Assembly (NCBI GenBank): GCA_018896355.1
Contig: JAHIMW010000115.1
Span: forward strand, 1-43,905
From: Pseudomonadota bacterium
Lineage (GTDB): Bacteria > Desulfobacterota > Syntrophia > Syntrophales > UBA5619
Direction of reading: 5' to 3'
Length of the DNA: 43,905 nucleotides
A model generated the notes under the pieces. It was given only the letters and a program-made list of their open reading frames with translations. It was not told the DNA's origin and searched no databases. Both the position numbers and the translations under genes were made by a program. Position 1 is the stretch's first letter, and every line of letters starts with the position of its first letter. Shown in pieces: positions 16,218-40,044 of this stretch.

Positions 16218-16247
16218 GAAACCCTCTCCTTCCTGACAACAAAATAG

Positions 16248-17561: not shown

Positions 17562-17592
17562 GATCACTCCTCGTCCCACTAAACGGAATCAT

Positions 17593-17614
17593 GCCGGCAA
17601 ATTTCTTTGCCGGC
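17593..17614 (-). other. Perfect 9-bp hairpin between the two TolC genes
   Basis: GCCGGCAAA-TTTC-TTTGCCGGC. No T-run follows on the coding strand, so it may be an mRNA-stabilising or attenuating structure rather than a terminator. Confidence 0.4.
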
Positions 17615-17703
17615 CGTTCACATTGCCGCCCGTCCCGCTGTCACCCCGTGATGATCGTTGGCCTTGGGCCTTCGTCAAACGGACCTTCTCTTGGGCGATG
17701 CCC

Positions 17704-19089
17704 TCACTCCACCCCGTCCGGAGCGGCAACCCCCATCGCCCTTTCCAGCTTCGCCCGGCCGATGCTGTAATCTCCGAGGGCGTTGTCGTGATCCGCTTTT
17801 GCCTTTGTCAGAAGGGTCTGGGCGTCGATCACATCGGTCGAGGTCCCTACCTGCTCCCGGTATCGCTCGGTGTTGATCCGGAAATTTTCTTCGGCCTGTT
17901 CGGTCGCCTTTTTCGCCACATGGATCTGCGTTCCCGCCTCATGAAGGAGGATCCAGGCGTTCTTGACTTCCAAGGCGATCTGCTCCCGGATGTTGGTCAG
18001 GATGTCCGCCGTCTGGTTCTCCCGGCTGAGGCCGGCCTCCACACGGCTTTTGGTCTTTCCCCACTCCCAGAAATTCCAGTTTGCCACGGCCATGACGTAC
18101 CAGTTCTCCTGGTCCCGGTAGGGGCTCCCGGCGACACCCGGTGTGTCGCCGTACCTGGCGTAATTCCCGACCAGCCCGACGTTCGGGTAATATTCGCTTC
18201 GGGCCAGCTTGACCTGGTTCTTCGCCTGTTCCAGGCGGAACGTGTATGACCGGATCTCCGGACGGTTTTCCATGGCCGCGGCAATGCAGCCGTCGAGCGG
18301 CTTCGTAAAGGGCCGGTCATTCAGGGCGTCTTCGATCTCCACGGGGGCGTTGATCTCCCGCCTGAGGAGCGTGTTGAATTTCGATTTCGCCATTTCCAGG
18401 CTGTTTTCCGCCCGTACCAGAAACTGCCGACCGTTCGCCAGTTCAACTTCGGCGTAGAGAAGATCGTTCCTTGGAATGATACCGACGTCATAATACCCCT
18501 GGGCCGTATCCCGGTGGGCCGTCAACCGCTCGATGGACTGCCTGGCTACCGCATGGATACGGCCCGCCTTCAGGATATTGAAATAGGCGATCTTGACTTC
18601 TTGAACGAGATCCTGGACCGTCGCGGTCTCTTCCAAGCGGGCAATCTCGCTTCCCAGACGGCTCGCATCGTAGCTCGCAAGAATCCCTCCCCCGGCGAAG
18701 AGGGGCTGCCGCACCTCGACATTCCAGTTGTAGTTCTCCTTCGTCCCGGCCTGGTAGGTGCTGGGAGGAATCGTCACCGGGATCGGCGAGGGACCGGGAA
18801 AGGTAAAGGAACCGCCCGGAGATGTGACCGTAGGATCATCGTTGAGTCGCGTGTAGCTGTAGGAGGTGCTGAATTTCGGCAGAAAGCCGGTGAACGCCTC
18901 CTTCCGCTGCGCCTCAGCCCCCTTCACCCCTTCCCGAGCCGCATGGATGAGGACGCTCCGCTTCAGCGCGAGATCGATGCTTTCGGATAGCGACAGCGGC
19001 TTTACCGTTTCCGCCGCGTGAACGGCGGTCACCGTTGCGGCAATCAGCGTGACGAGGACTCCGCGGAGAAACCATCGTTTAGTGCCCAT
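17704..19089 (-). CDS. TolC-family outer membrane efflux protein (first of two)
   Basis: 461 aa with signal peptide MGTKRWFLRGVLVTLIAATVTAVHA and OEP repeats. Confidence 0.85.
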   Translation of the reverse strand: MGTKRWFLRGVLVTLIAATVTAVHAAETVKPLSLSESIDLALKRSVLIHAAREGVKGAEAQRKEAFTGFLPKFSTSYSYTRLNDDPTVTSPGGSFTFPGPSPIPVTIPPSTYQAGTKENYNWNVEVRQPLFAGGGILASYDASRLGSEIARLEETATVQDLVQEVKIAYFNILKAGRIHAVARQSIERLTAHRDTAQGYYDVGIIPRNDLLYAEVELANGRQFLVRAENSLEMAKSKFNTLLRREINAPVEIEDALNDRPFTKPLDGCIAAAMENRPEIRSYTFRLEQAKNQVKLARSEYYPNVGLVGNYARYGDTPGVAGSPYRDQENWYVMAVANWNFWEWGKTKSRVEAGLSRENQTADILTNIREQIALEVKNAWILLHEAGTQIHVAKKATEQAEENFRINTERYREQVGTSTDVIDAQTLLTKAKADHDNALGDYSIGRAKLERAMGVAAPDGVE

Positions 19090-19375
19090 TTTTTCTGACC
19101 CCCTCCAGTTTCATGGCGGTTGAGAGATCCTTGTACATGTTGTTCACGGAGAAATGGGGAGCGAAGTTGCGTTCGATCATCCGGGGCCCGCGAACCTCCA
19201 TGGCGCCGGTGCGGGCCCCGCCGACACTCGTTATCTCTATGACCTTCCCTGGATCGATACCCGCCTTTTTTGCCAGCACCAGGGCCGCCGCCACTTCGGC
19301 CGGAGATCCGGCCCATGCCGCACCGGCTTCGACCACTTCAGCCACCTTTTCGTTTGAAAGCATTAACGCTTGCAT
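19079..19375 (-). pseudogene. Fragment of a 3-hydroxyisobutyrate/6-phosphogluconate dehydrogenase-type gene (C-terminal domain only)
   Basis: 98 aa: ...AGSPAEVAAALVLAKKAGIDPGKVIEITSVGGARTGAMEVRGPRMIERNFAPHFSVNNMYKDLSTAMKL. There is no Rossmann N-domain upstream in any frame. The 3' end is cut short and overlaps the TolC start codon. Confidence 0.6.
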
Positions 19376-19500
19376 GTGGAGGCTAAAAGATATTCATACC
19401 GCAATCTTTTCATATCATGCAGGTAAAACCTTTGTGCAGGTCGCCACAATCGAGATAGCGATAATAATTTCTTAGACTTGCCGAGAGCAACCGAGGCCTT

Positions 19501-19806
19501 CTACTTCTTGAACACTTTAAAAAGCCTTTCAAGGACAGGTTTCTCGATCTTCGCCAAGGCATCGCACTCGCCCGCATCAAGCCACATTCCTCTGCAGGAT
19601 GAACATTCATCTATCTTTATGCCCTTGAAATCAATTTCTATAAGATCCGTCCCGCACTTAGGACATTTCATAAAGTGCAGTTCTCTCAGTTTCTCTCTTT
19701 GCTCGCTGGATGCCTGTTTCTTCCTCTGTTCCTCTCTCCGCTTCTGCATCTCCTGTTCTATTCGCACGAAATACTCTTCTTCACGTTCCGTCGGCTTTAC
19801 CGGCAT
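19501..19806 (-). CDS. zf-TFIIB-type zinc-ribbon protein
   Basis: 101 aa. A charged N-terminus is followed by CPKCGTDLIEIDFKGIKIDECSSCRGMWLDAGE. SD is GGGAGG. Confidence 0.75.
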   Translation of the reverse strand: MPVKPTEREEEYFVRIEQEMQKRREEQRKKQASSEQREKLRELHFMKCPKCGTDLIEIDFKGIKIDECSSCRGMWLDAGECDALAKIEKPVLERLFKVFKK

Positions 19807-19826
19807 AGAGACCTCCCGTCTTCGGA

Positions 19827-19859
19827 TTTAATCTCCCTTCCTCCGGAAAGGAGATTAAA
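19827..19859 (-). other. 10-bp perfect inverted repeat in the 5' leader of the zinc-ribbon gene
   Basis: TTTAATCTCC (19827-19836) / GGAGATTAAA (19850-19859) with a 13-nt loop, about 20 nt upstream of the start codon at 19806. Confidence 0.35.
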
Positions 19860-20545
19860 GTGCAACCAATGTATTCGTTCTGCTGAACTGACTGACAAGG
19901 CATTGCATTTTCTCAGCGGGAGTTTACGAAGAACGATCTTGTGTGTCAATGGAATAATGGGGGACCGCTCAATTTCTATTGACTTATGTTTCAATATGGT
20001 CATATCATTCGTAATAAATCAAGACAAATGAAAAACTGTTGATGTCCGGCCGAAGAAGCTGCCGTTCTTTAAGGTAGGGCTCTTCACACGGACGGGATCT
20101 TCACAGAGGCATCTATCTTTGCTTGTATCAGGGCTAAAGAGGCAGGCATCCCTGTAGTTGCAGACGGGGAACTCTTAGGGACGGAATGCTGGACATCGCC
20201 CGATTGAGTGACTGAAGAACCCAACATCCTCGCCTGATATCAACTGATCGACCACTCCCCTTTTATGATATTCTTTCTCATGGTTTACATCTACTACCTT
20301 CAAACAGCATTCAATGATCTGGGCCGATAAGCCGCCATGAACATTAGCGATTGGAAGTCTGGCTTATCCTGTCGCTGATACTCCGTATCGATAAAAGGAA
20401 GAAAGACTTTTTAGACAAGTACGCTTAACCCTAATGATCAATCGCATCATTTTTTACTTGACAGCGGCAACGTATTCAGTGTAGCGAGACGGAACTTTTT
20501 GGTGTTGATCGCCTTTTTGCATTGAACTTTTTTCTCGAGGGAAGC

Positions 20546-20899
20546 ATGATTGAATACATCCCCATCCTGATCTTGCTCTGCTTTGCCATTATGATTGCCG
20601 TTCTGATCGTCGGCGCTTCGCACCTTCTGGGTCACCGAATTTCACGAAAAACCAAACTTTCCACCTACGAGTGCGGGATGCAGACCATCGGCCCCACCCG
20701 GATGAAGATGAACATCCGCTATTACATCATCGCCATGCTGTTTCTGATCTTCGATATCGAAATTATGTTTCTCTACCCGTGGGCGCTGGTGACGGGGGGA
20801 CTCGGGATGTTCGGATTCGTCGAGATGCTGATTTTCGTTGCGATCCTGTTTGTCGGTTATCTCTATGTGTGGAAGAAAGGGGCCCTGGAATGGGAGTAG
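20546..20899 (+). CDS. nuoA: NADH-quinone oxidoreductase subunit A
   Basis: ATG at 20546 ([11 protein letters not shown]...). Motifs: YECGM, and [15 protein letters not shown]. Confidence 0.9.
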
Positions 20900-21384
20900 A
20901 AGCCGCGGCGACCGCCTCTTTGCAGGAAGTAATAAACTGGGCAAGAAAAAATTCCATATGGCCTGTAACCTTCGGCCTTGCCTGCTGCGCGTTGGAGATG
21001 ATGGTGGCAAGTTCGTCAACCTATGACATTGCCCGTTTCGGCTCGGAGGTGTTCCGGCCCTCTCCCCGCCAGACGGACCTGATGATCGTCGCCGGAACCG
21101 TGACCAGGAAAATGGCGCCCATGCTGAAGCGCATCTATGAGCAGATGCCCGAACCGAAATGGGTCATCGCCTACGGAGCCTGCGCATGCAGCGGCGGAAT
21201 TTTCCAGACCTACAATGTCGTCCAGGGCGTCGACCAGATCATCCCCGTGGATGTCTACGTGCCCGGCTGTCCACCCCGGCCCGAAGGTCTTCTGAAAGGG
21301 ATCATAACCCTTCAGGAGAAGATCGCCGCAGAACCGGCGGGACAACGAAACCTTGTCAGTTTGCCGTGGAGGAACAATGGCTAA
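20890..21384 (+). CDS. nuoB: NADH-quinone oxidoreductase subunit B
   Basis: ATG at 20890 overlaps the nuoA stop. N2-cluster ligands are present: [25 protein letters not shown]. Confidence 0.95.
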
Positions 21385-21874
21385 GTGCATGGCCGGTGAT
21401 CTGCTGAAGGAAAACTTCCCGGAGGCGGTGCGGGACTGCGAAGAGTTCAGAGGGGAGACCAGCATCACCGTTGATGCGGGCAGGCTCAGAGAGGTCATGA
21501 CTTTCATGAAGGAAGAAGAGAAGCTTTGTTACGATCTTCTCCTCGACCTTGCCGGCGTCGACTTCAATGACCGCTCTCCCCGCTTCATGATCGCTTATCT
21601 GTTGCACAGCACGAAATTCAACAACAAACTCCGGATCAAAACGACGGTGGCAGAAGGCGCTTCGCTCGATACGGTCAGCGATATCTGGCTGGCGGCGGAC
21701 TACATGGAGCGGGAAGTGTATGACATGTTCGGGATTATATTCAATAACCACCCGAATTTAAAACGTATTCTTCTTACCGATGATTTTGTCGGCCACCCGT
21801 TGAGAAAGGATTTCCCCGTCAAAGGAGCGGATTTCGATCAACCGCTTCAGGTTTGCTTAGAGGAAGAACAATAA
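21377..21874 (+). CDS. nuoC: NADH-quinone oxidoreductase subunit C
   Basis: ATG at 21377 overlaps the nuoB stop (ATGGCTAA), with GGAGGA upstream. The 30-kDa subunit motif is [22 protein letters not shown]. Confidence 0.9.
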
Positions 21875-21896
21875 CGTTTTGAGGGCAAAAGAATCG

Positions 21897-23072
21897 ATGG
21901 CTGAATCCCGCTACATGACGATCAATATGGGGCCGCAGCATCCCGCAACGCACGGCGTTCTGAGGCTGCTTCTGGAGCTTGACGGGGAGATCATCGTCAA
22001 GGCCGAGCCGCACATCGGTTATCTGCATCGGGGCATCGAAAAACTGGCCGAATCCATGACCTATCCCCAGGCCCTCACGCTGACGGACCGGCTTGACTAT
22101 ACAAGCGCCCTCTCCAACAATCTTGCCTACTGCCTTGCCGTGGAGAAACTGCTGGACATCAACATACCGAAGAGGGCCCAGTATCTGCGGGTTCTGATGG
22201 CCGAACTTCAGCGGATCGCCGCCCACCTTCTCTGGCTCGCGACGCATGCGCTCGATCTGGGGGCGATGACGCTGCTCTTCTACGCCTTCCGGGAAAGGGA
22301 AACCATCATGGAGATCCTGGAATTGGCGACCGGCGCAAGGCTGACGCCGAGCTTCATCCGGATCGGCGGCCTTGCGAGCGACATTCCCGACACCTTTCTG
22401 CCCCGTGTGAAGGCGTTTGTAGAGGATTTCCCCAAGCGGATGGATGATTACGAAACGCTGCTGACGGAAAACATCATCTGGAAGAAAAGGACGACGAACA
22501 TCGCGCCGATGTCCGCGGAGGAGTGCATTCAGTACGGCGTCACGGGGCCGGTGCTGAGGGCTTCCGGCGTTTCTTACGACGTCCGAAAGGCCTATCCCTA
22601 CTCGAGCTACGAAGATTTTGACTTTGAAATCCCGCTGGGCAGGAACGGGGATGTCTATGACCGGTATCTGGTGAGACTGATAGAAATGCGGCAGTCGAAC
22701 CGGATTGTAAAGCAGGCCGCGGAGAAGCTGCCCGGCGGTCCGTTCGCCGCTGTTGACGCCCCGCTGGTTGTGCCGCCGGCTAAGGAGGAGGTGGGCCGGG
22801 ACATTGCGGCGCTGATCCGCCATTTCAAGATCATGGAGGAGGGCTTCCGGCCGCCGTGCGGCGAGGTTTACGCCTCCGTCGAATCGTCGAAGGGGGAACT
22901 CGGTTTCTATCTGATCAGCGACGGGACCAACAAGCCCTTCCGGATGAGGATCAGACCACCCTCCTTCATCAATCTGGCCGCGTTGCCGAAGATGATCGAG
23001 GGACAGATGGTCGCCGATGTCGTTGCCGCCATCGGCAGTATCGACATCGTGTTGGGAGAGATCGACAGATAG
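21897..23072 (+). CDS. nuoD: NADH-quinone oxidoreductase subunit D
   Basis: Motifs: MTINMGPQHPATHGVLRL...PHIGYLHRGIEK...; C-terminus DIVLGEIDR. The start could also be the TTG at 21879. Confidence 0.95.
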   Translation: MAESRYMTINMGPQHPATHGVLRLLLELDGEIIVKAEPHIGYLHRGIEKLAESMTYPQALTLTDRLDYTSALSNNLAYCLAVEKLLDINIPKRAQYLRVLMAELQRIAAHLLWLATHALDLGAMTLLFYAFRERETIMEILELATGARLTPSFIRIGGLASDIPDTFLPRVKAFVEDFPKRMDDYETLLTENIIWKKRTTNIAPMSAEECIQYGVTGPVLRASGVSYDVRKAYPYSSYEDFDFEIPLGRNGDVYDRYLVRLIEMRQSNRIVKQAAEKLPGGPFAAVDAPLVVPPAKEEVGRDIAALIRHFKIMEEGFRPPCGEVYASVESSKGELGFYLISDGTNKPFRMRIRPPSFINLAALPKMIEGQMVADVVAAIGSIDIVLGEIDR

Positions 23073-23079
23073 GATCATT

Positions 23080-25038
23080 ATGACTGACATCATTTTCAGT
23101 TCCTGGCAGAACGAACGGTTTGACGGCAGGGAGGCCGCGGCGACGGACGACAAGTCTCCCGCGAAAGTGAAGCTGGCCGCCGAGTTCGGCCCCGGGGAGC
23201 GGATCAAGGCCTTTATGGGCTGGGACGGCATCGCGCTGCGCGATGACGACGTCGACATCGTCGACATGTGCGCAAAGTATGCGGAGGCGGTGCAGGGGGA
23301 ATCGTGCGGCAAGTGTTTCCCCTGCCGCGTCGGGACAAGGATCGTCGCCGACTGGCTAAAGAAGATCGCCGCCGGAGAGGGACAGAAAGAGTACCCGGGG
23401 AAAATCCGAGAACTGGCGCTCTCCATCCGCGACGGCTCCAAATGCGGGATCGGCCAGACGGGGATGACCCCCATCCTCCACGCTCTGCAACATTTCCCGC
23501 AGGCCTTTGCCGCCGCGATCACGGAACAGAAGAAGGCCGGAGAGGGCAACTACCGCTACTCCGTCACCGCCCCCTGCATCAGCGTCTGCCCCAGCAGCCT
23601 CGACATCCCCCGTTATGTGGAAGAGATCAGCGAACAGCGATTCGCCGATTCACTGGCGACTATCCGGCAGGCGGTCTGCATGGCCGGGACGCTGGGAAGG
23701 GTCTGCATCCGACCGTGCGAATCCAACTGCCGCCGGGCGAATATCGATGAAGCCGTCTCCATCAAATGGCTGAAGCGGTATGTCGCCGACTATGAGATAG
23801 AAAAGAACCGACATCCTGAGATCAGCGGCCGCCATCATAATAAAGAGAGCAAGAAGGTGGCGGTCATCGGCGCCGGTCCGGCCGGATTGTCTTGCGCCTA
23901 CTATCTGGCCCTGATGGGTTATCGGGTCACCATCTTTGAAAAACTGCCGGAGCCCGGCGGCATGGCCGCCGTGGGTATCCCCGATTACCGCCTGCCGCGG
24001 GCGATCCTCCGCAGCGAGGTGGCGATTGTAGAGGAGGCCGGTGTGGAGATCCGCTATGGCGTCGAGATCGGGAAGGATATCAAATTCGCCGACATCCGGA
24101 ATGATCATGACGCCGTCTTCATCGGCGTTGGCGCCCAAGGCAATTCGCCGATGGGGGTGGAGGGTGAAGAGAAGAACTACCGCGGTTTCATCTCCGGCGT
24201 CCAGTATCTTCTGGACATAAACCTGGGAAGAGATCCCTACCCGGAAGGGAAAAAGGTGGTGGTCGTCGGCGGCGGCAACGTCGCGATTGACTGCGTGCGC
24301 TCCTCCTTCCGTATCGGGAAACCGGATGTGAACCTCGTCTACCGACGGTCGAAGACGGAGATGCCCGCCGACCCGGTGGAGATCAAGGACGCCGAGGAGG
24401 AAAAGGTCAACTTCCACTACCTCTGCAATCCGACGAAAATACTCGAGAAAGACGGAAAGGTCGTCGGGGTCGAATGCATCCGCATGGAGCTGGGCGAACC
24501 GGATCAAAGCGGCCGAAGAAGGCCCGTGCCCGTACCCGGTTCGGAATTTGTCATTGAAACGGATATCCTGATCCCTGCCATCGGCCAGAAGGTGGATTAC
24601 TCCTTCCTGGAAGAGGCGGACGGCATCAAGCTGTCGAAATGGAAAACGGTTGATTCCGATGGAGAGACATTTGTCACCTCGCAGGCGGGGGTGTTCGCCT
24701 CCGGCGACTGCGTCACCGGTCCCGATGTGCTGGTCAGGGCAACGGGCAACGGCAAGAGGGCGGCGGAAAAGATCGACCTCTTCCTGACCGGCAACAAGGT
24801 GGAAGCCTCGATCGAGGAAAGATTCAGGACCCTTTTTTCCACCATCGGGGTCTACGACAAAGAGGAGCAGCTTGGCGTCATCGGCGGCCTCAGGCGGGCA
24901 CACCTGCCAATGCTCGACCCGGAAGAGCGGAAGCGGACCTTCGAGGAAGTGGAGGCAGGCTACAATGCCCCTGCGGCGATCGGTGAGGCGGCACGCTGTC
25001 TCCGTTGCTACAGGATCGGCATGATTGCACTGGGTTGA
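23080..25038 (+). CDS. Fusion flavoprotein: NuoF C-terminal 4Fe-4S domain + GltD/SfrB-like FAD/NAD(P)H oxidoreductase (occupies the nuoE/nuoF position)
   Basis: 652 aa from the ATG at 23080. N-domain: ESCGKCFPCRVGT...GSKCGIGQTG, the NuoF N3-cluster signature. No FMN/NADH-binding 51-kDa core is present. Then come GltD-type Cys clusters (CISVCPSSLDIP, RVCIRPCESNCRR) and two dinucleotide folds (VAVIGAGPAGLSCAYYL, VVVVGGGNVAIDCV). Confidence 0.85.
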   Translation: MTDIIFSSWQNERFDGREAAATDDKSPAKVKLAAEFGPGERIKAFMGWDGIALRDDDVDIVDMCAKYAEAVQGESCGKCFPCRVGTRIVADWLKKIAAGEGQKEYPGKIRELALSIRDGSKCGIGQTGMTPILHALQHFPQAFAAAITEQKKAGEGNYRYSVTAPCISVCPSSLDIPRYVEEISEQRFADSLATIRQAVCMAGTLGRVCIRPCESNCRRANIDEAVSIKWLKRYVADYEIEKNRHPEISGRHHNKESKKVAVIGAGPAGLSCAYYLALMGYRVTIFEKLPEPGGMAAVGIPDYRLPRAILRSEVAIVEEAGVEIRYGVEIGKDIKFADIRNDHDAVFIGVGAQGNSPMGVEGEEKNYRGFISGVQYLLDINLGRDPYPEGKKVVVVGGGNVAIDCVRSSFRIGKPDVNLVYRRSKTEMPADPVEIKDAEEEKVNFHYLCNPTKILEKDGKVVGVECIRMELGEPDQSGRRRPVPVPGSEFVIETDILIPAIGQKVDYSFLEEADGIKLSKWKTVDSDGETFVTSQAGVFASGDCVTGPDVLVRATGNGKRAAEKIDLFLTGNKVEASIEERFRTLFSTIGVYDKEEQLGVIGGLRRAHLPMLDPEERKRTFEEVEAGYNAPAAIGEAARCLRCYRIGMIALG

Positions 25039-25048
25039 ACGGTAAATA

Positions 25049-27607
25049 ATGGACATGATTCGGTTAACCATTGACGGAAAAGAGATCACCACCCGGGAGG
25101 GGAGAACCATCCTCGAAGCGGCCCGGGAGGGGGGCATCGACATCCCGACCCTCTGTTACCATGAGCAGCTTTCCCCAATCGCCTCCTGCCGCCTCTGCGT
25201 AGTCGATGTGGAAGGCTATGAGAAGCCGATGACCTCCTGCACGACGCCGGCGGTGGATGGTCTTTCCGTAACCTCACGATCTGAGGGGCTTTTGAAGATG
25301 AGGCGGGAAATCCTGAACCTCATCCTCACCGCTCACCCGCTGGATTGCCCCCAGTGCGACAAGGGTGGGGAATGTCGGGTCCAGGAGCTCGCCTATGAAC
25401 ACGGGATCGAGAAGGTTGAATACGCGGCCCTTCGGGAAGATAGAAAAGAGGGCTACGCCACGCCGCTGATCCGTTACTGGGAGCTCCGCTGCGTCCTCTG
25501 CGGAAGATGCGTCCAGGGCTGCCGGGAGGTGTCGGGAAGAGCGGCCATCGACATCAAGGGCAACGGTTTTGAGGCCCGAATCGCCCCGACGGAAAACGGC
25601 GACTGCATCTCCTGCGGCGAATGTCTCTCCCTCTGCCCGGTCGGCGCCCTGACGGAAGCGCTGAGCCCGGTCAAGGGGAGGGTCTGGCAGAGTGAAAGAA
25701 CCGATACCGCCTGCCCCCATTGCGGCTTCGGATGCCGGCTGACGCTGAACGTTTTGGACGGGAAAATCATCAGCAAGGTGATCAGTGAGACGAACCTCCC
25801 GCCCAACAACACTTCACTCTGCATCCGCGGGCGTTTCGGCTATGATTTTGCGAACCACGAGGCAAGGTTGACTGAACCCTTTCAACGAATCGATGGCGAG
25901 ATAAAGAAACTCGAACGGGAAGCGGCGCTGAATATAACTGTGGAAAATCTTCAGCGGATCTCCGCCGAGGGCAAGGGGATCGGGTTTATCGTCTCGCCCC
26001 GGGCAACCAACGAAGAGATCTTCCTGATCTCCCGGATTGCGGCGCACTTCGAGAATGGCCGCGTTGCCTCCGCCGCCGCCTACCATACGGGGAAAGTGGC
26101 CTCCGCCTTCCGCCGGATGGGGATAAATCCCGGTTATCATTACGAAACGATCCGCACCTGCAAAACTATCATTGTCGCCGGCGCCGATCTGCTGATCAAC
26201 AATCATCTGCTGGCCAACAAGGTCAGGGAGGCCGTAAGATTCAACGGCTCCAGGGTGATCGTCGTTGACCCCCTCCCCAGTGCGCTGTCCGGCATCGCCG
26301 ACGCCTATTTGAAGATTGCGCCCGGGCAGGACGCCCTGGTTTTCAACGCGCTCTCCCGAAGGCTGCTCTTAGACGGCAAGTACGACAAGGATGCGGAAAC
26401 ATTGGAGGGTTTTGTTGAATTGAGGCAGTCCCTCACGACAGCCGATGAAGAGACCCCGCCGCTTTCGACCGGCGTCGAAGCGGCGATGCTGGACAAGGCC
26501 TATGGTCTGATCCGGGATGAAGGGGATACCGGGGTTATTTTTGCCTCCGGCATCACGACCAGTGAAGAAAGCCTCGCAGCGCTTCTGAATTTCTGCCTCC
26601 TGAAAGGTCTGCACAAGCGGGGGATGATCATGCCGGCCGCCCTCCAGTCCAATGCCGTGGGTGCGGTTGCGATCCTGAAGGAGCTGGCCTCGCCCGATGA
26701 GCTTATCCGCGATTCCGAGATCTCCGGACTTTTCATCTACGAAGATGACCCGTTCCATTACCTGAACGGAGAGTTGGTCAAAAAGGGCTTAAGTCAAAAG
26801 GCGTTCATCGCGGTGTGCGATCTGCTGCCGACGGCCGTGATGGATTTTGCCGGTCTGGTCCTGCCCTCCGCCAGTTTTGCCGAGAAGGAAGGCACCTTCA
26901 TCTCCGGTGACGGCAGCGTGAGGGCCGTCAAGAAGGCTTGCAGCGGAAAGGCGGCGGGATACGAATTTCTGAATGAACTCTTCAGCCGTCTCGGAGGAAA
27001 ACGATACAGCAACCCGGCGGAGATCACCGATGAAATCCAGGGCCTGGGCCTCCTCAAAGAAGAGGGCGACGCGAAAGAGCCGGGGATCGGCAAGGCAAGG
27101 TTTGCGGCATCCGGGGACATCTTGCCGCAAGGTGTCCCCCCTAACATCATGATGCCTCATCGTGTCCCCTCCCACGCAAAGGATGCGCATGCAGAGACCG
27201 GAAAATACCGGCTGATCCTCCGCGACCTCTTCATGAACCACCACCTCTGGGGACATGATGCCGCAGCATCAAGTGCTAAGTGCAGGGTGCTGAGTGCTGA
27301 GTTTTTTTCTTCTCAGTCCTCAGCACTCAGTCCTCAGCACTCAGTCCTGTATCCCCCAAAGGATCGGCTTTTCATATCCCCTGAAGATGCCGCGCTCCTC
27401 CAGATCGCCGATGGGGAGAGTCTTTGCATCGAAAGCGCCGACGGCGCCGTTACCAGGCCGGTTACGATCAAGGCGGGAGTGAAAACGGGTGTTCTGGAGT
27501 GCGTTCTCGGGGACACCTTGCGACAAGGTGTCCCCATACGGAGCGAAATACTTGCGCTTTCGTTGCGGCCGTCCAAGGTGATTGCGGTATCCGCTCGGAA
27601 GGTTTAA
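25049..27607 (+). CDS. nuoG: NuoG/SfrA-like Fe-S subunit with a catalytically silent molybdopterin-oxidoreductase-like domain
   Basis: 852 aa. 2Fe-2S domain (CYHEQLSPIASCRLCVV...MTSC), HPLDCPQCDKGGEC, CISCGECLSLCPVGAL, and CPHCGFGCRL...LCIRGRFG. The position that holds Cys/Sec in formate dehydrogenases reads AAAYHTGKVA. The C-terminal barrel domain is LFISPEDAALLQIADGESLCIES. Confidence 0.85.
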   Translation: MDMIRLTIDGKEITTREGRTILEAAREGGIDIPTLCYHEQLSPIASCRLCVVDVEGYEKPMTSCTTPAVDGLSVTSRSEGLLKMRREILNLILTAHPLDCPQCDKGGECRVQELAYEHGIEKVEYAALREDRKEGYATPLIRYWELRCVLCGRCVQGCREVSGRAAIDIKGNGFEARIAPTENGDCISCGECLSLCPVGALTEALSPVKGRVWQSERTDTACPHCGFGCRLTLNVLDGKIISKVISETNLPPNNTSLCIRGRFGYDFANHEARLTEPFQRIDGEIKKLEREAALNITVENLQRISAEGKGIGFIVSPRATNEEIFLISRIAAHFENGRVASAAAYHTGKVASAFRRMGINPGYHYETIRTCKTIIVAGADLLINNHLLANKVREAVRFNGSRVIVVDPLPSALSGIADAYLKIAPGQDALVFNALSRRLLLDGKYDKDAETLEGFVELRQSLTTADEETPPLSTGVEAAMLDKAYGLIRDEGDTGVIFASGITTSEESLAALLNFCLLKGLHKRGMIMPAALQSNAVGAVAILKELASPDELIRDSEISGLFIYEDDPFHYLNGELVKKGLSQKAFIAVCDLLPTAVMDFAGLVLPSASFAEKEGTFISGDGSVRAVKKACSGKAAGYEFLNELFSRLGGKRYSNPAEITDEIQGLGLLKEEGDAKEPGIGKARFAASGDILPQGVPPNIMMPHRVPSHAKDAHAETGKYRLILRDLFMNHHLWGHDAAASSAKCRVLSAEFFSSQSSALSPQHSVLYPPKDRLFISPEDAALLQIADGESLCIESADGAVTRPVTIKAGVKTGVLECVLGDTLRQGVPIRSEILALSLRPSKVIAVSARKV
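27272..27349 (+). repeat. Heptanucleotide-repeat hairpin inserted in frame inside the nuoG-like CDS
   Basis: Left arm: AGTGCTA AGTGCAG GGTGCTG AGTGCTG AG. Then T7 (27302-27308). Right arm: CTTCTCA GTCCTCA GCACTCA GTCCTCA GCACTCA GTCCTG. CTGAGTGCTGAG (27290-27301) is perfectly complementary to CTCAGCACTCAG at both 27319-27330 and 27333-27344. The element is 78 nt = 26 codons with no stop. Confidence 0.75.
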
Positions 27608-27634
27608 CTTTAACGGGTCGTTTAAGGTTTTGAT

Positions 27635-28621
27635 ATGGAACTGTACTACTATATCCTGGAAGTGGTCCTGAAAAATCTGGTCGTCATTTCGATCCTGATG
27701 CTCTTTGTCGCCTATCTCACCCTCGCGGAAAGGAAATTCCTGGGCTACCTCCAGGTCCGACTGGGACCAAACCGGGTGGGAACCTGGGGATTGCTCCAGC
27801 CCATTGCGGACGGGATAAAATCCTTTGTCAAAGAAGACATCATTCCGATCAACGCCGACAAGCCCGTTTATGTGATCGCCCCGATAATCTCGTTTGTCGC
27901 CGCCCTTTCGATGTTTGCCGTCATTCCGTTTGGCGACAGCGTCACCCTCTTCGGGCGGGAGATCAAACTGGTCATCGCGGATGTGGATATCGGGATCCTC
28001 TACATCTTCGCCATGGGTACCCTCGGGGAATACGGCATAGTCCTGGGAGGCTGGTCATCGGGCAACAAATACGCCATCCTGGGGTCGCTCCGGGCGGCGG
28101 CGCAGATGATCAGTTACGAGGTCGCGCTGGGACTCATCGTGATCGGAACGATTATTCTTTCCGGCTCCCTGCGCCTGACCGAAATTGTCGAAGCCCAGAG
28201 GGATTGCTGGTTTATCGTCTATCAACCCTTTGCCTTTCTTTTATACATTGTGGCGGCCCTGGCCGAGCTCAACCGGACGCCCTTCGACATGCCTGAATCG
28301 GAAAGCGAGCTCGCCTCCGGATTCAACATCGAGTACAGCAGCATGAAGTTCGCACTTTTCATGATTGCCGAGTATATCCATCTGGTCACGGTGGCCGCCC
28401 TGACCACGACGCTGTTTCTGGGCGGCTGGCTGGGGCCGGTTTTGCCCGGACCGGTGTGGTTTATCCTGAAAACGTGCCTGATCATCTTCATCTTCATCTG
28501 GGTCCGAGGCACCTACCCGCGGATGCGTTACGACCACATCATGAAATTCGGGTGGAAGTTCCTCTTTCCGGCGGCGCTCGCCAATGTGGTGATCACCGCC
28601 TTTATTGTGGCGCTGAGATAG
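27635..28621 (+). CDS. nuoH: NADH-quinone oxidoreductase subunit H
   Basis: 328 aa. Motifs: LAERKFLGYLQVRLGPNRVG and LAELNRTPFDMPESESEL. Confidence 0.95.
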   Translation: MELYYYILEVVLKNLVVISILMLFVAYLTLAERKFLGYLQVRLGPNRVGTWGLLQPIADGIKSFVKEDIIPINADKPVYVIAPIISFVAALSMFAVIPFGDSVTLFGREIKLVIADVDIGILYIFAMGTLGEYGIVLGGWSSGNKYAILGSLRAAAQMISYEVALGLIVIGTIILSGSLRLTEIVEAQRDCWFIVYQPFAFLLYIVAALAELNRTPFDMPESESELASGFNIEYSSMKFALFMIAEYIHLVTVAALTTTLFLGGWLGPVLPGPVWFILKTCLIIFIFIWVRGTYPRMRYDHIMKFGWKFLFPAALANVVITAFIVALR

Positions 28622-28631
28622 AGAGGCTTTT

Positions 28632-29036
28632 ATGATACTCCCTCTGCTGAAAGGGCTGAAACTGACGTTGAAGATGTTTTTTTCCAAACCGGTTACCATA
28701 CGGTATCCGGAAGAAAAAAGGGCGATATCCCCCCGCTGGCGGGGAATGCATTACTTTGAAAAAAACGGGACGGGCGAGACCGCCTGCGTGGCCTGCGGGT
28801 TATGCGTGGCCGTCTGTCCTTCGCACTGCATCACGCTGGAAATCCGGGAGCGGGAAGACGGTTCCCGCTATCCCGGAAGATATGAAATCGACGCCCTCCG
28901 ATGCATCTTCTGCGGCTTCTGCCAGGAGGCCTGTCCGGTCAACGCGATCAAATTGGGACAGAACTACGAGTACGTTCATTACGCAAGGAAAGATTTCCTG
29001 CTGACGAAGGAAAGCCTGCTTTCGGCCAAAGGATGA
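28632..29036 (+). CDS. nuoI: NADH-quinone oxidoreductase subunit I
   Basis: 134 aa with two ferredoxin motifs, CVACGLCVAVCP and CIFCGFCQEACP. Confidence 0.95.
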   Translation: MILPLLKGLKLTLKMFFSKPVTIRYPEEKRAISPRWRGMHYFEKNGTGETACVACGLCVAVCPSHCITLEIREREDGSRYPGRYEIDALRCIFCGFCQEACPVNAIKLGQNYEYVHYARKDFLLTKESLLSAKG

Positions 29037-29040
29037 AAAG

Positions 29041-29577
29041 ATGGATGCGATAGGATTCAAGTTCATACTGTTCATGATTACGGCGCTCGTGGTCATCGTC
29101 TCTTCGGTACTGATGGCAACCCGGAAAAATCCCATTCACAGCGCACTGTGGATGATCGTCACCTTCTTTGCGATGGCCGTCATTTATCTGCTGCTCAACG
29201 CCCAGTTCATCGCGGTGGCCCAGGTCATGGTCTATGCCGGCGCCATCATGATGCTGATTCTCTTCGTCATCATGATGGTCAACATGGACAAGACTCAGGA
29301 GGGGGAGACAACCAGGGAAACCTGGTCATTCGGCAAAAAGATGGCCGCGGCACTGCTGATGGTCATCCTGCTCGTCGAATTGCTCTTCGGCGCGCTGTTT
29401 TACCGGATGACGGCAAAGGTGGGCGATTATCCGGCCGATGCGGTCGCCGCTGCGGGGAATGCCAAAACGATGGGAGCAATGCTGTACGGACAGTATCTCT
29501 TTCCGTTCGAGATTGCATCGATCCTGCTTTTGATCGGTATTGTGGGCGCCGTCGTCATTGCCAAAAAGAACAAATGA
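29041..29577 (+). CDS. nuoJ: NADH-quinone oxidoreductase subunit J
   Basis: 178 aa, polytopic. Motifs: NPIHSALWMIVTFF and VMVYAGAIMMLILFVIMM. Confidence 0.9.
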   Translation: MDAIGFKFILFMITALVVIVSSVLMATRKNPIHSALWMIVTFFAMAVIYLLLNAQFIAVAQVMVYAGAIMMLILFVIMMVNMDKTQEGETTRETWSFGKKMAAALLMVILLVELLFGALFYRMTAKVGDYPADAVAAAGNAKTMGAMLYGQYLFPFEIASILLLIGIVGAVVIAKKNK

Positions 29578-29607
29578 CGGCGTGGTCGTCATCAACAGGA
29601 GAAAGAT

Positions 29608-29919
29608 ATGTTTCAGGAAATCCCTCCCGGCTTGTGTTTGGTATTGAGCGGCATCCTTTTTTCGATCGGGGCGATCGGTGCAATCACCCGAAGAAATGTG
29701 ATCGTCATCTTCATGTGCATCGAACTCATGCTGAACGCGGTTAATCTGGCATTCATCGCCTCCGGCAACGCATTCTCCTCGATGGACGGAGCGGTGTTCG
29801 TTTTTTTCATCATGACCGTCGCCGCCGTGGAGGCCGCGGTCGGTCTGGCCATTTTTGTGATGGTCTACCGGCTTCAGGGAACGGTCAACGCCGATGAAGT
29901 CAACCTGCTGAGAGGCTGA
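29608..29919 (+). CDS. nuoK: NADH-quinone oxidoreductase subunit K
   Basis: 103 aa with three TM helices. Motifs: CIELMLNAVNLAF and VAAVEAAVGLAI. Confidence 0.9.
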   Translation: MFQEIPPGLCLVLSGILFSIGAIGAITRRNVIVIFMCIELMLNAVNLAFIASGNAFSSMDGAVFVFFIMTVAAVEAAVGLAIFVMVYRLQGTVNADEVNLLRG

Positions 29920-29943
29920 AAAAAAGAATGAGGAAGTACATCC

Positions 29944-31926
29944 ATGGCTGAATTCATCTGGCTGATACCCTTTTTCCCGGCATTGGGATTCATCATCAAC
30001 ACCTCCCTCGGAAGTCGAACCTCGCGGAGCTTCGTTTCCTGGGTCGCCTGCCTCGCAATCTTTTTCTCCTTTCTGGCATCCCTCGCCGTTTTTCTACAGT
30101 TTCTGGAGATGCCGGCGGCGGCCAGGATCTTCGAAACCGACCTCTACAACTGGATCGCCTCGGGCGAATTTCGTGTGCCGATCGGTTTTAGGCTCGACAC
30201 CCTTTCGGTGATCATGTGCCTTGTGGTCACCGGGGTGGGTTTTCTGATCCACGTCTACTCCATCGGGTATATGCACGATGATCCCGGATTCAAGCGATTT
30301 TTCATCTACATGAACCTCTTCGTCTTCATGATGCTTCTTCTGGTGACGGGGAACAACCTGCTCTTGATGTTCGTCGGGTGGGAAGGCGTCGGCCTCTGTT
30401 CCTATCTGCTGATCGGCTTCTGGTATGAAAAGGATTCGGCGTCAACCGCCGGTAAAAAAGCCTTTATTGTCAACAGAATCGGAGACTTCGGTTTCCTGTT
30501 GGGCATCTTTCTGTTATTTGTCAGTCTGGGTGCCGAGGGGGTCTGGACGCTCAATTTCGGGGAGATACAGAATAGCGCCCATCTGCTGAACGGCAACGCC
30601 GTGACGCTGATCACGCTGCTGTTTTTTGTCGGGGCCGTCGGAAAATCGGCACAGATCCCCCTTTACGTCTGGCTGCCCGACGCGATGGAAGGTCCGACGC
30701 CGGTAAGCTCGCTGATCCATGCGGCGACCATGGTCACGGCAGGCGTCTACATGATCGCCCGGCTGAATTTTCTCTACAGCATGGCGCCGGAAACGATGAT
30801 CATTGTCGCGCTGATCGGCTTATTGACGGCATTTTTCGCCGCCTCGATCGGTTTCGCCCAGTACGACATCAAGAAGGTGCTCGCCTATTCCACGATCAGC
30901 CAGTTGGGCTTCATGTTCGTGGCGATGGGTGTGGGCGCCTATGCGGCGGGCATTTTCCATCTGATGACCCACGCCTTTTTCAAGGGCCTCCTCTTTTTGG
31001 GGGCGGGAAGCGTAATGCACGCGATGAGCGGGGAGTTGGACCTTCGAAACATGGGGGGATTGAGAAAGAAGATCCCCGTCACCTACTGGACCTTTTTTAT
31101 CGCCTGCCTGGCCATTTCCGGGATACCCGGTTTGTCAGGTTTCTTCAGCAAGGACGAGATCCTCTGGAAGGCCTTCAGCACCGGCCATACGCTGATCTGG
31201 CTGCTGGCCGCCGTAACGGCAGGCATGACCGCCTTCTACATGTTCCGGCTTTTCTTCACCATCTTTCACGGGGAGTGTCGCGCCTCCGCGGAAGTCAAAC
31301 ATCATATCCACGAATCCCCCAAGGTCATGACCATCCCGCTTACGATCCTGGCCTTTTTATCCCTTGTCGGCGGTTACGTGGGCATTCCCGCTCTACTCGG
31401 AGGAAATAACGCGATCGAACACTTTCTGGCGCCGATTTTCGGTCCGGCTGCTCCTGCTTCAACCACGGCGGGCGGTTTTGACCTGATCCCTGCGGCCTGG
31501 GCCTCCACAACGGCCGCGGCGGGCCACGATACCTCACTGGAAATGACCCTGATGGTCGCCTCCGTAATGATTGCCCTTTTCGGAATCACACTGGCCTTCA
31601 TCCTCTACGTCAAGCGGCCTGAACTTCCGGGACGTTTTGCGGCAGCCTTCTCGCGACTCTACCGCACCGTCAACAACAAGTATTTCGTCGATGAGTTTTA
31701 TGAGATGCTCTTTGTCCGGGGCACCCTGAAGGCGGGCGCCTTGCTCCTCAAGGTGGTGGACAACGGCATGATCGAAGGCGCCGTCAACGGCCTGGCCGTC
31801 GTTGTGGAACGGGCGGGCGGACGATTAAGAAGGCTGGAGACCGGTTACGTTCAGGAATATGCACTCGCCATCATCCTCGGCGCGGTGATCGTGATCGGCT
31901 ATCTTGTCGTAATACCGATGTTTTAG
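29944..31926 (+). CDS. nuoL: NADH-quinone oxidoreductase subunit L
   Basis: 660 aa antiporter-like subunit. Motifs: FVGWEGVGLCSYLLIGFW and KSAQIPLYVWLPDAMEGPTPVSSLIHAATMV. A C-terminal lateral-helix region is present. Confidence 0.95.
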   Translation: MAEFIWLIPFFPALGFIINTSLGSRTSRSFVSWVACLAIFFSFLASLAVFLQFLEMPAAARIFETDLYNWIASGEFRVPIGFRLDTLSVIMCLVVTGVGFLIHVYSIGYMHDDPGFKRFFIYMNLFVFMMLLLVTGNNLLLMFVGWEGVGLCSYLLIGFWYEKDSASTAGKKAFIVNRIGDFGFLLGIFLLFVSLGAEGVWTLNFGEIQNSAHLLNGNAVTLITLLFFVGAVGKSAQIPLYVWLPDAMEGPTPVSSLIHAATMVTAGVYMIARLNFLYSMAPETMIIVALIGLLTAFFAASIGFAQYDIKKVLAYSTISQLGFMFVAMGVGAYAAGIFHLMTHAFFKGLLFLGAGSVMHAMSGELDLRNMGGLRKKIPVTYWTFFIACLAISGIPGLSGFFSKDEILWKAFSTGHTLIWLLAAVTAGMTAFYMFRLFFTIFHGECRASAEVKHHIHESPKVMTIPLTILAFLSLVGGYVGIPALLGGNNAIEHFLAPIFGPAAPASTTAGGFDLIPAAWASTTAAAGHDTSLEMTLMVASVMIALFGITLAFILYVKRPELPGRFAAAFSRLYRTVNNKYFVDEFYEMLFVRGTLKAGALLLKVVDNGMIEGAVNGLAVVVERAGGRLRRLETGYVQEYALAIILGAVIVIGYLVVIPMF

Positions 31927-31932
31927 AAGAAT

Positions 31933-32044
31933 GTGAGGTGTGAAGGGTGAGGCGTGAAGAGTTGAGAGTTATGGGTGAAGTGTTCAATGTAAGGCGAGAA
32001 GTGCGAGGTGAAAGACACTCCTCACCCCTTACTCCTCACTCTTT
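31933..32044 (+). repeat. Array of 12 GTG-phased heptamers followed by about 4 inverted heptamers, in the nuoL-nuoM spacer
   Basis: Direct units: GTGAGGT GTGAAGG GTGAGGC GTGAAGA GTTGAGA GTTATGG GTGAAGT GTTCAAT GTAAGGC GAGAAGT GCGAGGT GAAAGAC. Inverted units: ACTCCTC ACCCCTT ACTCCTC ACTCTTT. GGTGAGG at 31945-31951 is complementary to CCTCACC at 32021-32027. The spacer is 136 nt, against 4-30 nt elsewhere in the operon. Confidence 0.75.
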
Positions 32045-32062
32045 TTGATAATGGATCGGTGA

Positions 32063-33592: not shown

Positions 33593-33605
33593 AAGGTAAA
33601 AAATT

Positions 33606-37452: not shown

Positions 37453-37576
37453 ACAGATCCGCTTTACAACTTATCAAACATGATGTACGTGATAACCGCT
37501 ATCCTCAATTTTTCCCAAGTGCTTGATCAGGCCCAGGTAGAACCATTTTCGAATCTTTTTCAAGGAGAATAATAAA

Positions 37577-38143: not shown

Positions 38144-38216
38144 ACGGTCTCATCAAACATTTATTTAAATGGCAGAGCGTCGAAAGTGGAGGGTATTTTG
38201 AGAAAGGAGAACGATT

Positions 38217-38468
38217 ATGGGTGAGCAAAAGGTTAAGCTCTATTCAAGACCTGCTTGAGCATGGTGCATACAAGCAAAAGAGTTTCTTTTGCAAAAAGGT
38301 GTAGAAATTGAAGAGCATGACCTCTTGAAAAATCCATTGAGCAACGAGGAGATCCTTACATTGGTGACAACCAAAGACGGGCAGATGAGAACGCCAATTA
38401 TCACCCGGGGAGATGAAGTTATTGTCTTTGGTTATAACCGGGACAAGTTGGGAAAATTGTTTCCGTAA
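38217..38468 (+). CDS. Glutaredoxin-like (NrdH/YruB-type) thioredoxin-fold protein with in-frame TGA at the first redox position; probable selenoprotein
   Basis: AAAGGAGA lies 6 nt before the ATG at 38217. The single frame reads MGEQKVKLYSRPA-TGA-AWCIQAKEFLLQKGVEIEEHDLLKNPLSNEEILTLVTTKDGQMRTPIITRGDEVIVFGYNRDKLGKLFP, ending at TAA 38466-38468. The TGA (38256-38258) sits exactly where the first Cys of CxxC belongs. The ORF track misses the gene and shows only an antisense shadow ORF (38244..38480). Confidence 0.7.
38274..38292 (+). promoter_or_regulatory. Candidate bacterial SECIS hairpin
   Basis: GCAAAAGA-GTT-TCTTTTGC is a perfect 8-bp stem starting 15 nt after the TGA. The apical loop begins with G, 23 nt after the TGA. 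Confidence 0.5.
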
Positions 38469-38506
38469 GGACGATGTCATTGGACAGATAATGTGTTACC
38501 CCAAAA

Positions 38507-40027: not shown

Positions 40028-40044
40028 AGGAGGGAGAATTTCAT

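Follow-up and report, generated by a model that had tools for sequence, protein, structure and literature searches.

A complex I operon with an SfrB/FdhB-type iron-sulfur flavoprotein and a NuoG-type subunit at the position of NuoEFG in a relative of Syntrophus

Complex I enzymes are known to receive electrons from NADH (through NuoEFG), F420H2 (through FpoF), flavodoxin (in Campylobacter) and ferredoxin (in NDH-1). The complex I operon on contig JAHIMW010000115.1 (GenBank assembly GCA_018896355.1), from a bacterium related to Syntrophus, raises the question of how electrons enter an enzyme that is encoded without NuoE and NuoF. In this stretch of 43,905 nucleotides (nt), hereafter the window, the operon has the order nuoA-B-C-D-X-G-H-I-J-K-L-M-N (20546-35063, plus strand), in which X and G are our designations for a flavoprotein of 652 amino acids (aa) and a NuoG-type protein of 852 aa. 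These two genes stand exactly where canonical operons have nuoEFG. In this study, we analyzed both proteins and their relatives by comparative genomics and structure prediction. Our data indicate that X and G probably form the peripheral electron-input/output module of a 13-subunit complex I, which would function as a reversible, proton-pumping NADPH:menaquinone oxidoreductase.

Open reading frame (ORF) listing and translation showed that all genes of the operon are co-linear and tightly packed. Intergenic distances range from -10 to +30 nt, with the sole exception of the 136-nt nuoL-nuoM spacer, and the gaps around the two genes in question are 7 nt (nuoD-X), 10 nt (X-G) and 27 nt (G-nuoH). 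Gene order, coordinates and packing, including this spacer, are as described in a previous reading of the window made from its sequence (the original prediction). NCBIfam models for complex I subunits recognised all eleven core subunits of the Q and P modules (NuoA-D and NuoH-N); the scores of most lie at or above a curated cut-off, and those of NuoA, NuoH and NuoJ lie below every curated cut-off. The Q module is of the quinone-reductase type, with tandem-Cys N2 ligands in NuoB, two [4Fe-4S] motifs in NuoI and quinone-site motifs in NuoD. Motif inspection found no NiFe-type CxxC pairs in NuoD, which has three scattered Cys residues only.

Searches for the missing subunits were negative throughout the window. 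With E. coli NuoE, FdsG and HydC-like queries, tblastn detected no NuoE relatives at E<1 in the whole window, and PF01257 was absent from the operon proteins. Likewise, six-frame tblastn with E. coli NuoF, FdsB and HydB-like queries detected no NuoF FMN core in the window, and Pfam did not detect PF01512 in X. NuoF-type proteins match the window only by their last ~110-148 residues, which align to X aa 6-150. The original prediction had noted the lack of NuoE-type sequences and of the FMN core in the operon, and the observation extends to the window as a whole.

X itself consists of three domains, i.e., an N3-type [4Fe-4S] domain (PF10589), a Fer4_20 domain and a Pyr_redox domain (Table 1), the composition that had been predicted for it. 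In NCBIfam, its body groups with GltD/NfnB-like NADPH flavoproteins, with all GltD and gltA equivalog models below cut-off, and only positions 303-410 of the 410-position NuoF model align, to X aa 40-147. No gene for GltB or NfnA, the cognate partners of GltD and NfnB, is present in the window. Among solved structures, the best matches of X aa 157-644 are the GltD/NfnB-like part of NfnABC (9bov_A and 9n5u_A; E ~1e-110), StnC (8oh5_C), NfnB, GltD and DPD. The N-terminal domain is closest to StnB, HydB and HoxF (E 1e-19 to 1e-17), with respiratory NuoF at ~1e-8. An AlphaFold2 (AF2) model of X (pLDDT 78, pTM 0.78) gave the same ranking by fold as by sequence in Foldseek, with NfnABC, StnC, NfnB, GltD and DPD as the best hits.

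The cofactor ligands of X are strictly conserved. In 46 nuo-embedded orthologues, the four N3 Cys residues (76, 79, 82 and 122), the seven Cys residues of the GltD clusters (166, 170, 209, 213, 217, 640 and 643) and the nucleotide-binding motifs GAGPAG and GGGNVA...VYRR(S/T)xxEMPA are invariant. The VYRR motif is common to the NADPH-oxidising NfnABC and Stn subunits. The ratio of nonsynonymous to synonymous substitution rates (dN/dS) of X against two relatives was 0.15 and 0.08, compared with 0.06-0.10 for nuoD and nuoH. In X, the canonical GltD motif RCxxCxxxxCxxxCP appears split: CxxxCP is located at aa 166-171 (23575-23592), and RCLRC is found at the extreme C-terminus. The CLRC sequence probably supplies the first CxxC of a permuted cluster motif, and the split suggests that the GltD Fe-S domain is circularly permuted throughout the family.

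Combining the N3-type, Fer4_20 and Pyr_redox_2 domains in one chain of ~650 aa is characteristic of SfrB and of the beta subunits of NADP-dependent formate dehydrogenases (FDHs), and X further resembles these proteins in adjoining a NuoG-like/molybdopterin alpha partner, G, 10 nt downstream. SfrB is described as a subunit of an NADPH:Fe3+ oxidoreductase (PMC7483475), and the gene for the beta subunit of the Moorella NADPH-dependent FDH is sfrB2 (PMC13040438). Unlike the SfrB/NADP-FDH pattern of genes that are independent of membrane complexes, the X/G pair is encoded between nuoD and nuoH.

The partner protein G has the cofactor layout of NuoG, as had been predicted. Pfam assigned Fer2_4, NADH-G_4Fe-4S_3, Fer4_Nqo3, Molybdop_Fe4S4, Molybdopterin and Molydop_binding domains to it. 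The best NCBIfam model was NuoG (TIGR01973; 331 bits, below the cut-off of 470), and the Fdh-alpha model (TIGR01591) scored 201 bits (cut-off 666). In 32 orthologues, all four ligands of the N1b [2Fe-2S] cluster (C36, 47, 50 and 64) are invariant, and so are the three Cys ligands of N5 (C100, 103 and 109), whose His ligand (H96) is found in 30 of the 32. Two ferredoxin-domain [4Fe-4S] clusters are bound by C148, 151, 154 and 158 and by C186, 189, 192 and 196, with the N4 ligands kept, and C222, 225, 229 and 258 form an N7/FS0-type site. Four of these residues (C158, 186, 189 and 192) are missing from E. coli and Neisseria NuoG, so that G has one [4Fe-4S] cluster more; this extra cluster is common to FdsA, an SfrA-like protein and Sinorhizobium plasmid NuoG.

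The molybdopterin part of G tells a different story. In the alignment, no Cys occurs at the Sec/Cys-His column of FDHs in the window's G or its clade (Sec, selenocysteine), in agreement with the original prediction that the catalytic residue is absent. Of the positions that are invariant in four Mo/W enzymes (n=123), 31% are kept in the window's clade versus 38% in NuoG references. The AF2 model of G (pLDDT 75.5) matched FdsA-type FDH alpha subunits with TM scores of ~0.69-0.71 on the query, and NuoG/Nqo3 with 0.58-0.62 on the query and 0.65-0.67 on the target; the two fold matches are about equal. The dN/dS values against two relatives were 0.29 and 0.16. The most fitting description of G is that of a NuoG-type electron wire and scaffold in which the molybdopterin domain is dead. 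Most of its extra length (852 aa versus 804-811 aa in close orthologues) is due to an insertion at aa ~668-770 (27050-27360), which is of low confidence and probably disordered.

Table 1. Genes of the operon and predicted domains of X and G in the window
Feature	Position	Strand	Evidence
nuoA	20546-20899	+	NCBIfam NuoA models, E 1.6e-35
nuoB (cluster N2 subunit)	20890-21384	+	NuoB models above cut-offs; N2 ligands C32/C33, C98, C127
nuoC	21377-21874	+	TIGR01961 134 bits, cut-off 122
nuoD (quinone-site subunit)	21897-23072	+	TIGR01962 575 bits, cut-off 459; HPATHG and DRLDY motifs
X, 652 aa (MTDIIF...), SfrB/FdhB-type iron-sulfur flavoprotein, putative NADPH-binding subunit	23080-25038	+	Pfam, AF2, Foldseek, invariant ligands, dN/dS
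X, N3-type [4Fe-4S] four-helix domain, aa 62-145 (C76, C79, C82, C122)	23263-23514	+	PF10589, E 3e-22
X, GltD/DPD-type 2x[4Fe-4S] domain (Fer4_20), aa 163-243 (C166, C170, C209, C213, C217)	23566-23808	+	PF14691, E 1.3e-20, from profile position 29 onward
X, FAD Rossmann (GAGPAG) and NAD(P)H Rossmann (GGGNVA...VYRRSKTEMPA), Pyr_redox_2, aa 258-558	23851-24753	+	PF07992, E 2.8e-29
X, C-terminal CLRC, aa 640-643	24997-25008	+	invariant in 56/56 aligned family members; aligns with RCxxC of 9n5u_A and 9bov_A
G, 852 aa, NuoG/SfrA-type Fe-S subunit, degenerate molybdopterin domain	25049-27607	+	Pfam, NCBIfam, AF2, dN/dS
G, Fe-S wire, aa 1-270	25049-25858	+	ligands invariant or nearly so in 32 embedded orthologues
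G, molybdopterin-oxidoreductase-like domain without catalytic Cys/Sec-His, aa 273-852	25865-27604	+	alignment column and FDH-invariant positions
nuoH	27635-28621	+	NuoH models, E 2.8e-121
nuoI (N6a/N6b)	28632-29036	+	TIGR01971 155 bits, cut-off 113; two CxxCxxCxxxCP motifs
nuoJ	29041-29577	+	NuoJ models
nuoK	29608-29919	+	NF004320 111 bits, cut-off 57
nuoL	29944-31926	+	NF005141 772 bits, cut-off 556
nuoM	32063-33592	+	TIGR01972 636 bits, cut-off 264
nuoN	33606-35063	+	TIGR01770 472 bits, cut-off 333

The cluster order of canonical complex I is N3-N1b-N4-N5-N6a-N6b-N2, and ligand conservation suggests that this path is carried over to the X/G enzyme. In the proposed mechanism, NADPH would donate a hydride to the FAD of X, from which single electrons would pass via the two GltD-type [4Fe-4S] clusters to the N-terminal N3-type cluster. 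They would then move to the N1b [2Fe-2S] cluster of G, on to its N4 and N5 clusters, and through N6a/N6b (NuoI) and N2 (NuoB) to menaquinone at the NuoD/NuoH site, with proton pumping by NuoH, NuoL, NuoM and NuoN. In the reverse mode, the proton-motive force would drive electrons from menaquinol to NADP+, which would be useful to a syntroph. Docking of X and G on the Nuo core is suggested by synteny and gene packing, and the use of NADPH rather than NADH by the protein family and the VYRR motif; the quinone type, coupling to proton pumping and the physiological direction are also predictions. The proposal is supported by the complete set of core ligands, by a slot held only by X and G, by synteny and by purifying selection. 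In addition, the Fe-S ligands of G are kept while its molybdopterin domain is free to vary.

Relatives of X number in the thousands, and the best ones are from metagenome-assembled genomes (MAGs) of Syntrophaceae, Syntrophales and Syntrophorhabdales. We classified 67 loci, one genome per species, by tblastn with all Nuo proteins of the window. The gene directly upstream of X is nuoD in 51 of them; the remaining loci are contigs that begin inside X (3), orphan X genes (10), X with a G-like gene and no nuo genes (2), and an unrelated GltD-type protein (1). The complete D-X-G-H order, which the original prediction had proposed to look for in related genomes, is present in 38 of the 51, with X identities from 92% down to 49%. 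Embedded loci come from Syntrophales, Syntrophorhabdales and Desulfohalobiaceae, including Desulfovermiculus and another Desulfohalobiaceae genome, and the operon was also found on a 2.47-Mb contig, where X and G overlap by 4 nt. The gene-level observation recurs in dozens of independent genomes and is hence no chance pattern, and the occupation of the NuoEF(G) slot by a GltD/SfrB-like module is well supported at the genomic level. Orphan X paralogues (L030-L035, L038, L047 and L049; e.g., L031, 6001-7953) share 53-57% identity and have all cofactor ligands intact; they occur in Desulfobacterales-type MAGs among housekeeping genes (purH, hisD). The protein of L031 shows the three-domain architecture of X.

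Several findings weigh against a docked, NADPH-linked module. First, homologous pairs of the soluble type occur at two loci without nuo genes. At L064 (Desulfuromonadales), a 679-aa protein with the three domains of X adjoins an 855-aa G-like protein and no nuo genes are nearby, which is the SfrAB pattern. At L055 (Dethiosulfatarculus sandiegensis, 5959-10693), an X-like beta subunit (44% identity) is accompanied by the alpha subunit of a selenocysteine FDH, whose gene has a TGA in frame (CART-U-HAPTV); this is the NADP-FDH pattern. Second, the orphan paralogues nest inside the embedded clade in the X tree, so X can work outside the nuo context. Third, two Syntrophus-type loci have nuoABCD-X-nuoH without G: in L053, 14 nt separate the stop of X from the start of nuoH (7953-7967), a clean junction, and L058 (2459-4203) has an X with an internal gap. 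These loci suggest either that the X-G-NuoI wire is not obligatory in every lineage or that the module is dispensable or decaying in one Syntrophus sub-clade. Finally, the negative search for NuoE and NuoF covers the 43,905 nt of the window, and a separate NuoEF set could be located elsewhere in the genome.

With regard to the last point, one relative, L007, has a HydB/HydC-type NuoF/NuoE-like pair adjoining its nuo operon. The genes lie directly upstream of nuoA in divergent orientation (2-3202, minus strand) and encode a NuoE-like protein (151 aa), a HydB-type NuoF-like protein with PF01512 (630 aa) and a HydA-like protein. This gene set is typical of soluble HydABC/FDH enzymes, but it still shows that NuoEF-like proteins occur in such genomes. 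Another relative, L020, has a split molybdopterin FDH, probably Sec-containing, at 961-3012; in relatives, redox modules cluster around the operon.

These observations lead to a first alternative, in which X and G constitute a soluble NADPH oxidoreductase of the SfrAB type (e.g., NADPH:ferredoxin) that is merely co-transcribed with a headless, ferredoxin-fed 11-subunit Nuo and shares a redox pool with it, by analogy with cyanobacterial NDH-1. The nuo-free pairs of L064 and L055, the orphan X among housekeeping genes in L031 and the nuoABCD-X-HIJKL operons without G would fit such an arrangement, and 11-subunit Nuo complexes are common in related anaerobes, where they are usually assumed to be ferredoxin-dependent (PMC4287179, PMC11238625). 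However, the 51 deeply divergent loci all carry the insertion between nuoD and nuoH, where the canonical N-module has its slot. The gaps of a few nt and the overlapping stop and start codons would agree with co-translation and, possibly, with assembly in stoichiometric amounts. Moreover, the ligand set N1b-N4-N5 by which NuoG is wired to NuoI is kept exactly in G, in contrast to the decayed domain that would have been catalytic. We give the soluble enzyme a small but real chance.

A further reservation concerns the route of electrons within X. In Nfn enzymes, electrons bifurcate at the GltD-type FAD, and the simple linear path is therefore an assumption. In a second alternative, the module would be a bifurcating or confurcating head, in which the NfnB-like FAD of X splits the electron pair of NADPH between Nuo/menaquinone and a low-potential acceptor such as ferredoxin, in analogy to Fix/EtfABCX. 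The closest solved relatives of X (NfnABC, StnABC and NfnAB) are indeed bifurcating, and the [4Fe-4S] cluster that G has in addition to those of E. coli NuoG, together with the N7/FS0-type cluster, could form a side branch. Nevertheless, bifurcation appears quite improbable: the operon encodes no second exit partner (NfnA-, NuoF- or ferredoxin-like), in the non-bifurcating enzymes GltD and DPD the same pair of clusters serves as a linear wire, and ordinary FdsA-type FDHs also carry extra clusters.

The choice between NADPH and NADH is the last of these reservations, as the predicted specificity is derived from homology. The same architecture could use NADH, or both nucleotides, and would then work as an ordinary NADH:quinone complex I whose dehydrogenase head is non-homologous; relaxed specificity does occur among GltD-family enzymes. 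We regard this third alternative as unlikely, since the invariant GGGNVA...VYRR(S/T)xxEMPA motif is also found in solved NADPH-dependent relatives and since SfrAB, the Moorella FDH, StnC and NfnB, i.e., the characterised enzymes, use NADPH (PMC7483475, PMC13040438).

The origin of the putative NADPH-linked module can be approached through its relatives. The original prediction had viewed X as a protein that keeps only the docking domain of NuoF. This view did not survive, as the N3 domain is HydB/StnB/HoxF-like (E ~1e-19, versus ~1e-8 for NuoF) and is also present in the nuo-free pairs of L064 and L055. An in-situ remnant of NuoF was accordingly rejected, because the same architecture occurs in pairs without nuo genes and the domain is closer to HydB-type domains. 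By sequence comparison, the N3-type domain is native to the SfrB/NADP-FDH beta family and would have arrived with the module rather than being a remnant of a resident NuoF. The module thus most likely derives from an NADP-dependent FDH (FdhAB)- or SfrAB-type heterodimer, not from a decayed resident NuoF.

Trees were built by neighbor joining on Kimura distances (in numpy) with bootstraps; they are crude, and rate differences may distort the branching of NuoG, SfrA and embedded G. With 97% bootstrap support, embedded G clusters with canonical NuoG and the SfrA-like protein to the exclusion of FdsA, Sec-FDH and a YjgC-like protein, with the inner order not settled. The SfrAB-like pair of the original prediction is therefore retained in part: X belongs with SfrB/NADP-FDH-beta-type proteins, and G is not assignable to SfrA over NuoG. 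In the X tree, the Desulfohalobiaceae proteins group with the FDH beta subunit of L055.

The embedded G proteins are graded from FDH-like in Desulfohalobiaceae to NuoG-like in the window. At the first end, G of L051 (Desulfohalobiaceae) keeps 78% of the FDH-invariant positions and the Cys-His dyad and scores 779 bits with the Fdh-alpha model (cut-off 666). The L026 group keeps 71% and scores 725 bits with no Cys, followed by the soluble SfrA-like protein of L064 (52%, 415 bits; 434 bits with the NuoG model) and the window's clade (31%, 201-215 bits; 331-359 bits with the NuoG model). The FDH-like embedded genes are located at L051 8044-10716, L054 7153-9825 and L026 8035-10710, in Desulfohalobiaceae and another clade of Thermodesulfobacteriota, and may represent formate-linked variants of complex I.

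These proteins bear on a fourth alternative, that G is still a catalytic molybdo/tungsto-enzyme, e.g., an FDH, and that the complex is formate-linked in the window organism as well. Embedded G proteins of other clades do score above the Fdh-alpha cut-off and that of L051 retains its Cys-His dyad, but the window's G has no Cys at the Sec/Cys column, its clade retains less than a third of the FDH-invariant positions, and its Fdh-alpha score of 201 bits is far from 666. A formate-linked complex in this organism is hardly credible, and G as a catalytic FDH was ruled out for the window on the same three counts.

Read most simply, and given the crude trees, the series suggests the capture of an FdhAB/SfrAB-type module between nuoD and nuoH and a later decay of its FDH site. 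A broader scenario may tentatively be suggested, in which the embedded X/G pairs reflect an independent capture of an NADP-dependent FDH by the 11-subunit core, with a living series of soluble Sec-FDH pairs, FDH-like embedded forms with Cys-His, forms with an intact pterin domain without Cys, and degenerate NuoG-like forms. Its end product in Syntrophales and Syntrophorhabdales could be a reversible proton-pumping NADPH:menaquinone oxidoreductase that, driven by the proton-motive force, links acyl-CoA-derived menaquinol to low-potential NADPH in syntrophy. If this scenario is true, the capture series would visibly replay a possible origin of the canonical N-module; the graded decay of the FDH domain across clades bears on how complex I gained NuoG.

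Among known systems, SfrAB of Geobacter sulfurreducens, compared here through its proxy L064, has the same two-subunit layout: a beta subunit with N3 and GltD clusters and FAD/NADPH sites, and an alpha subunit with a NuoG-like Fe-S N-terminus and, like G, a molybdopterin-like domain without catalytic Cys/Sec. X is 43% identical to L064 beta over its full length, and G is 30.6% identical to L064 alpha, its closest outgroup. SfrAB is soluble, with genes away from nuo, whereas X and G are embedded between nuoD and nuoH. The NADP-FDH FdhAB (Moorella thermoacetica type; e.g., L055) has a beta subunit of the same architecture as X, alignable over its full length and 44% identical as given above, and an FdhA with a Sec-His active site (TGA before HAPTV), which is absent from the window's G.

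The canonical NuoE/NuoF/NuoG occupy the same operon slot; G resembles NuoG in fold and in its ligands for N1b, N5, N4 and N7, and the N-terminal domain of X is homologous to the N3 domain of NuoF. In contrast to the canonical N-module, X/G lacks NuoE and the FMN/NADH domain, has its FAD in a GltD-type fold, contains two extra [4Fe-4S] clusters in X and one in G, and has NADPH as its predicted donor.

Alternative inputs to complex I are already known, i.e., FpoF, the NuoE/F replacements of Campylobacter and ferredoxin-dependent NDH-1 (PMC3144371, PMC4453560). According to these papers, the Campylobacter/Helicobacter enzyme keeps NuoG and has NuoE/F swapped for other proteins in the same operon position. 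Those replacements are small and flavodoxin-fed, whereas X is a large pyridine-nucleotide-binding iron-sulfur flavoprotein. Fpo/Fqo follows the same concept as X, in that one alternative flavoprotein serves as the input subunit of an 11-subunit core (PMC3144371). However, FpoF and X are unrelated, and FpoF uses F420H2 and does not require a NuoG-like subunit. NfnABC and StnABC (PDB 9bov, 9n5u and 8oh5), the best matches of X aa 157-644, also combine GltD-like and NuoG-like parts (PMC7483475). They are soluble, however, have these parts fused in one chain, and need NuoF-like FMN and NuoE-like subunits, neither of which is encoded in the window.

No description of nuoABCD-[SfrB-like]-[G]-nuoHIJKLMN was found in the searchable open literature, with subscription papers and some key papers beyond reach. 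Moparthi & Hägerhäll 2011, Spero 2015, Degli Esposti 2015, the 2025 NuoHMMER survey and a 2024 Desulfitobacterium paper do not mention a GltD/SfrB-type flavoprotein in the N-module slot. In Degli Esposti 2015, the only gltD-related subunit noted is a replacement of NuoI in mbx-like operons, and the name Nuo13, which we considered for the X/G arrangement and rejected, means fused NuoCD.

The X/G variant of complex I is thus probably undescribed so far. We know of no characterised proton-pumping complex I that is wired to NADPH via a GltD-type FAD flavoprotein. Public annotations do not recognise the relatives of X and G as Nuo subunits, apart from an occasional "NuoG" for G. Relatives of X are named "FAD-dependent oxidoreductase" or, by JGI, "formate dehydrogenase (NADP+) beta subunit", and those of G "molybdopterin-dependent oxidoreductase", "YjgC" or "NADP-FDH alpha". 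Because of these generic names, metabolic reconstructions assign a headless Nuo to the carriers. The variant occurs widely in Syntrophales and Syntrophorhabdales, whose members are key syntrophs in methanogenic sediments and digesters. It has long been asked how these organisms lift electrons from acyl-CoA oxidation to low potential, and a reversible NADPH:menaquinone pump, if true, would offer a concrete and testable answer.

Several other features were observed in the window. An RND efflux system, which appears unrelated to the nuo operon, occupies 11984-19089 on the minus strand (an AcrB-type pump of 1038 aa, a membrane-fusion protein and two outer-membrane factor genes). Two small ORFs (19113-19475 and 19478-19831) without family matches precede an AT-rich, non-coding leader of ~700 nt upstream of nuoA (19832-20545), which has a promoter-like TTGACT/TATCAT site at 19979-20008 and no Rfam match. 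Rfam and tRNA scans of the window detected nothing, a promoter scan gave nothing above shuffled sequences, and promoter and terminator scans found nothing notable inside the D-X-G-H stretch. Downstream of the operon, G+C content falls from ~0.60 to 0.40-0.48 at 37500-43905, which may reflect the horizontal acquisition of an island or a join in the assembly. This region encodes an FMN_red-type flavoprotein (37577-38143) and a periplasmic [NiFe] hydrogenase, composed of a small subunit with the twin-arginine (Tat) motif SRRDFLKYSAAMAALFG (39023-40027) and a large subunit (40045-41607) and followed by a HycI-type protease (41604-42137); no cytochrome b gene occurs before the window end. This hydrogenase, with its Tat signal and 4 kb downstream of the operon, is compatible with a menaquinone-centred chain.

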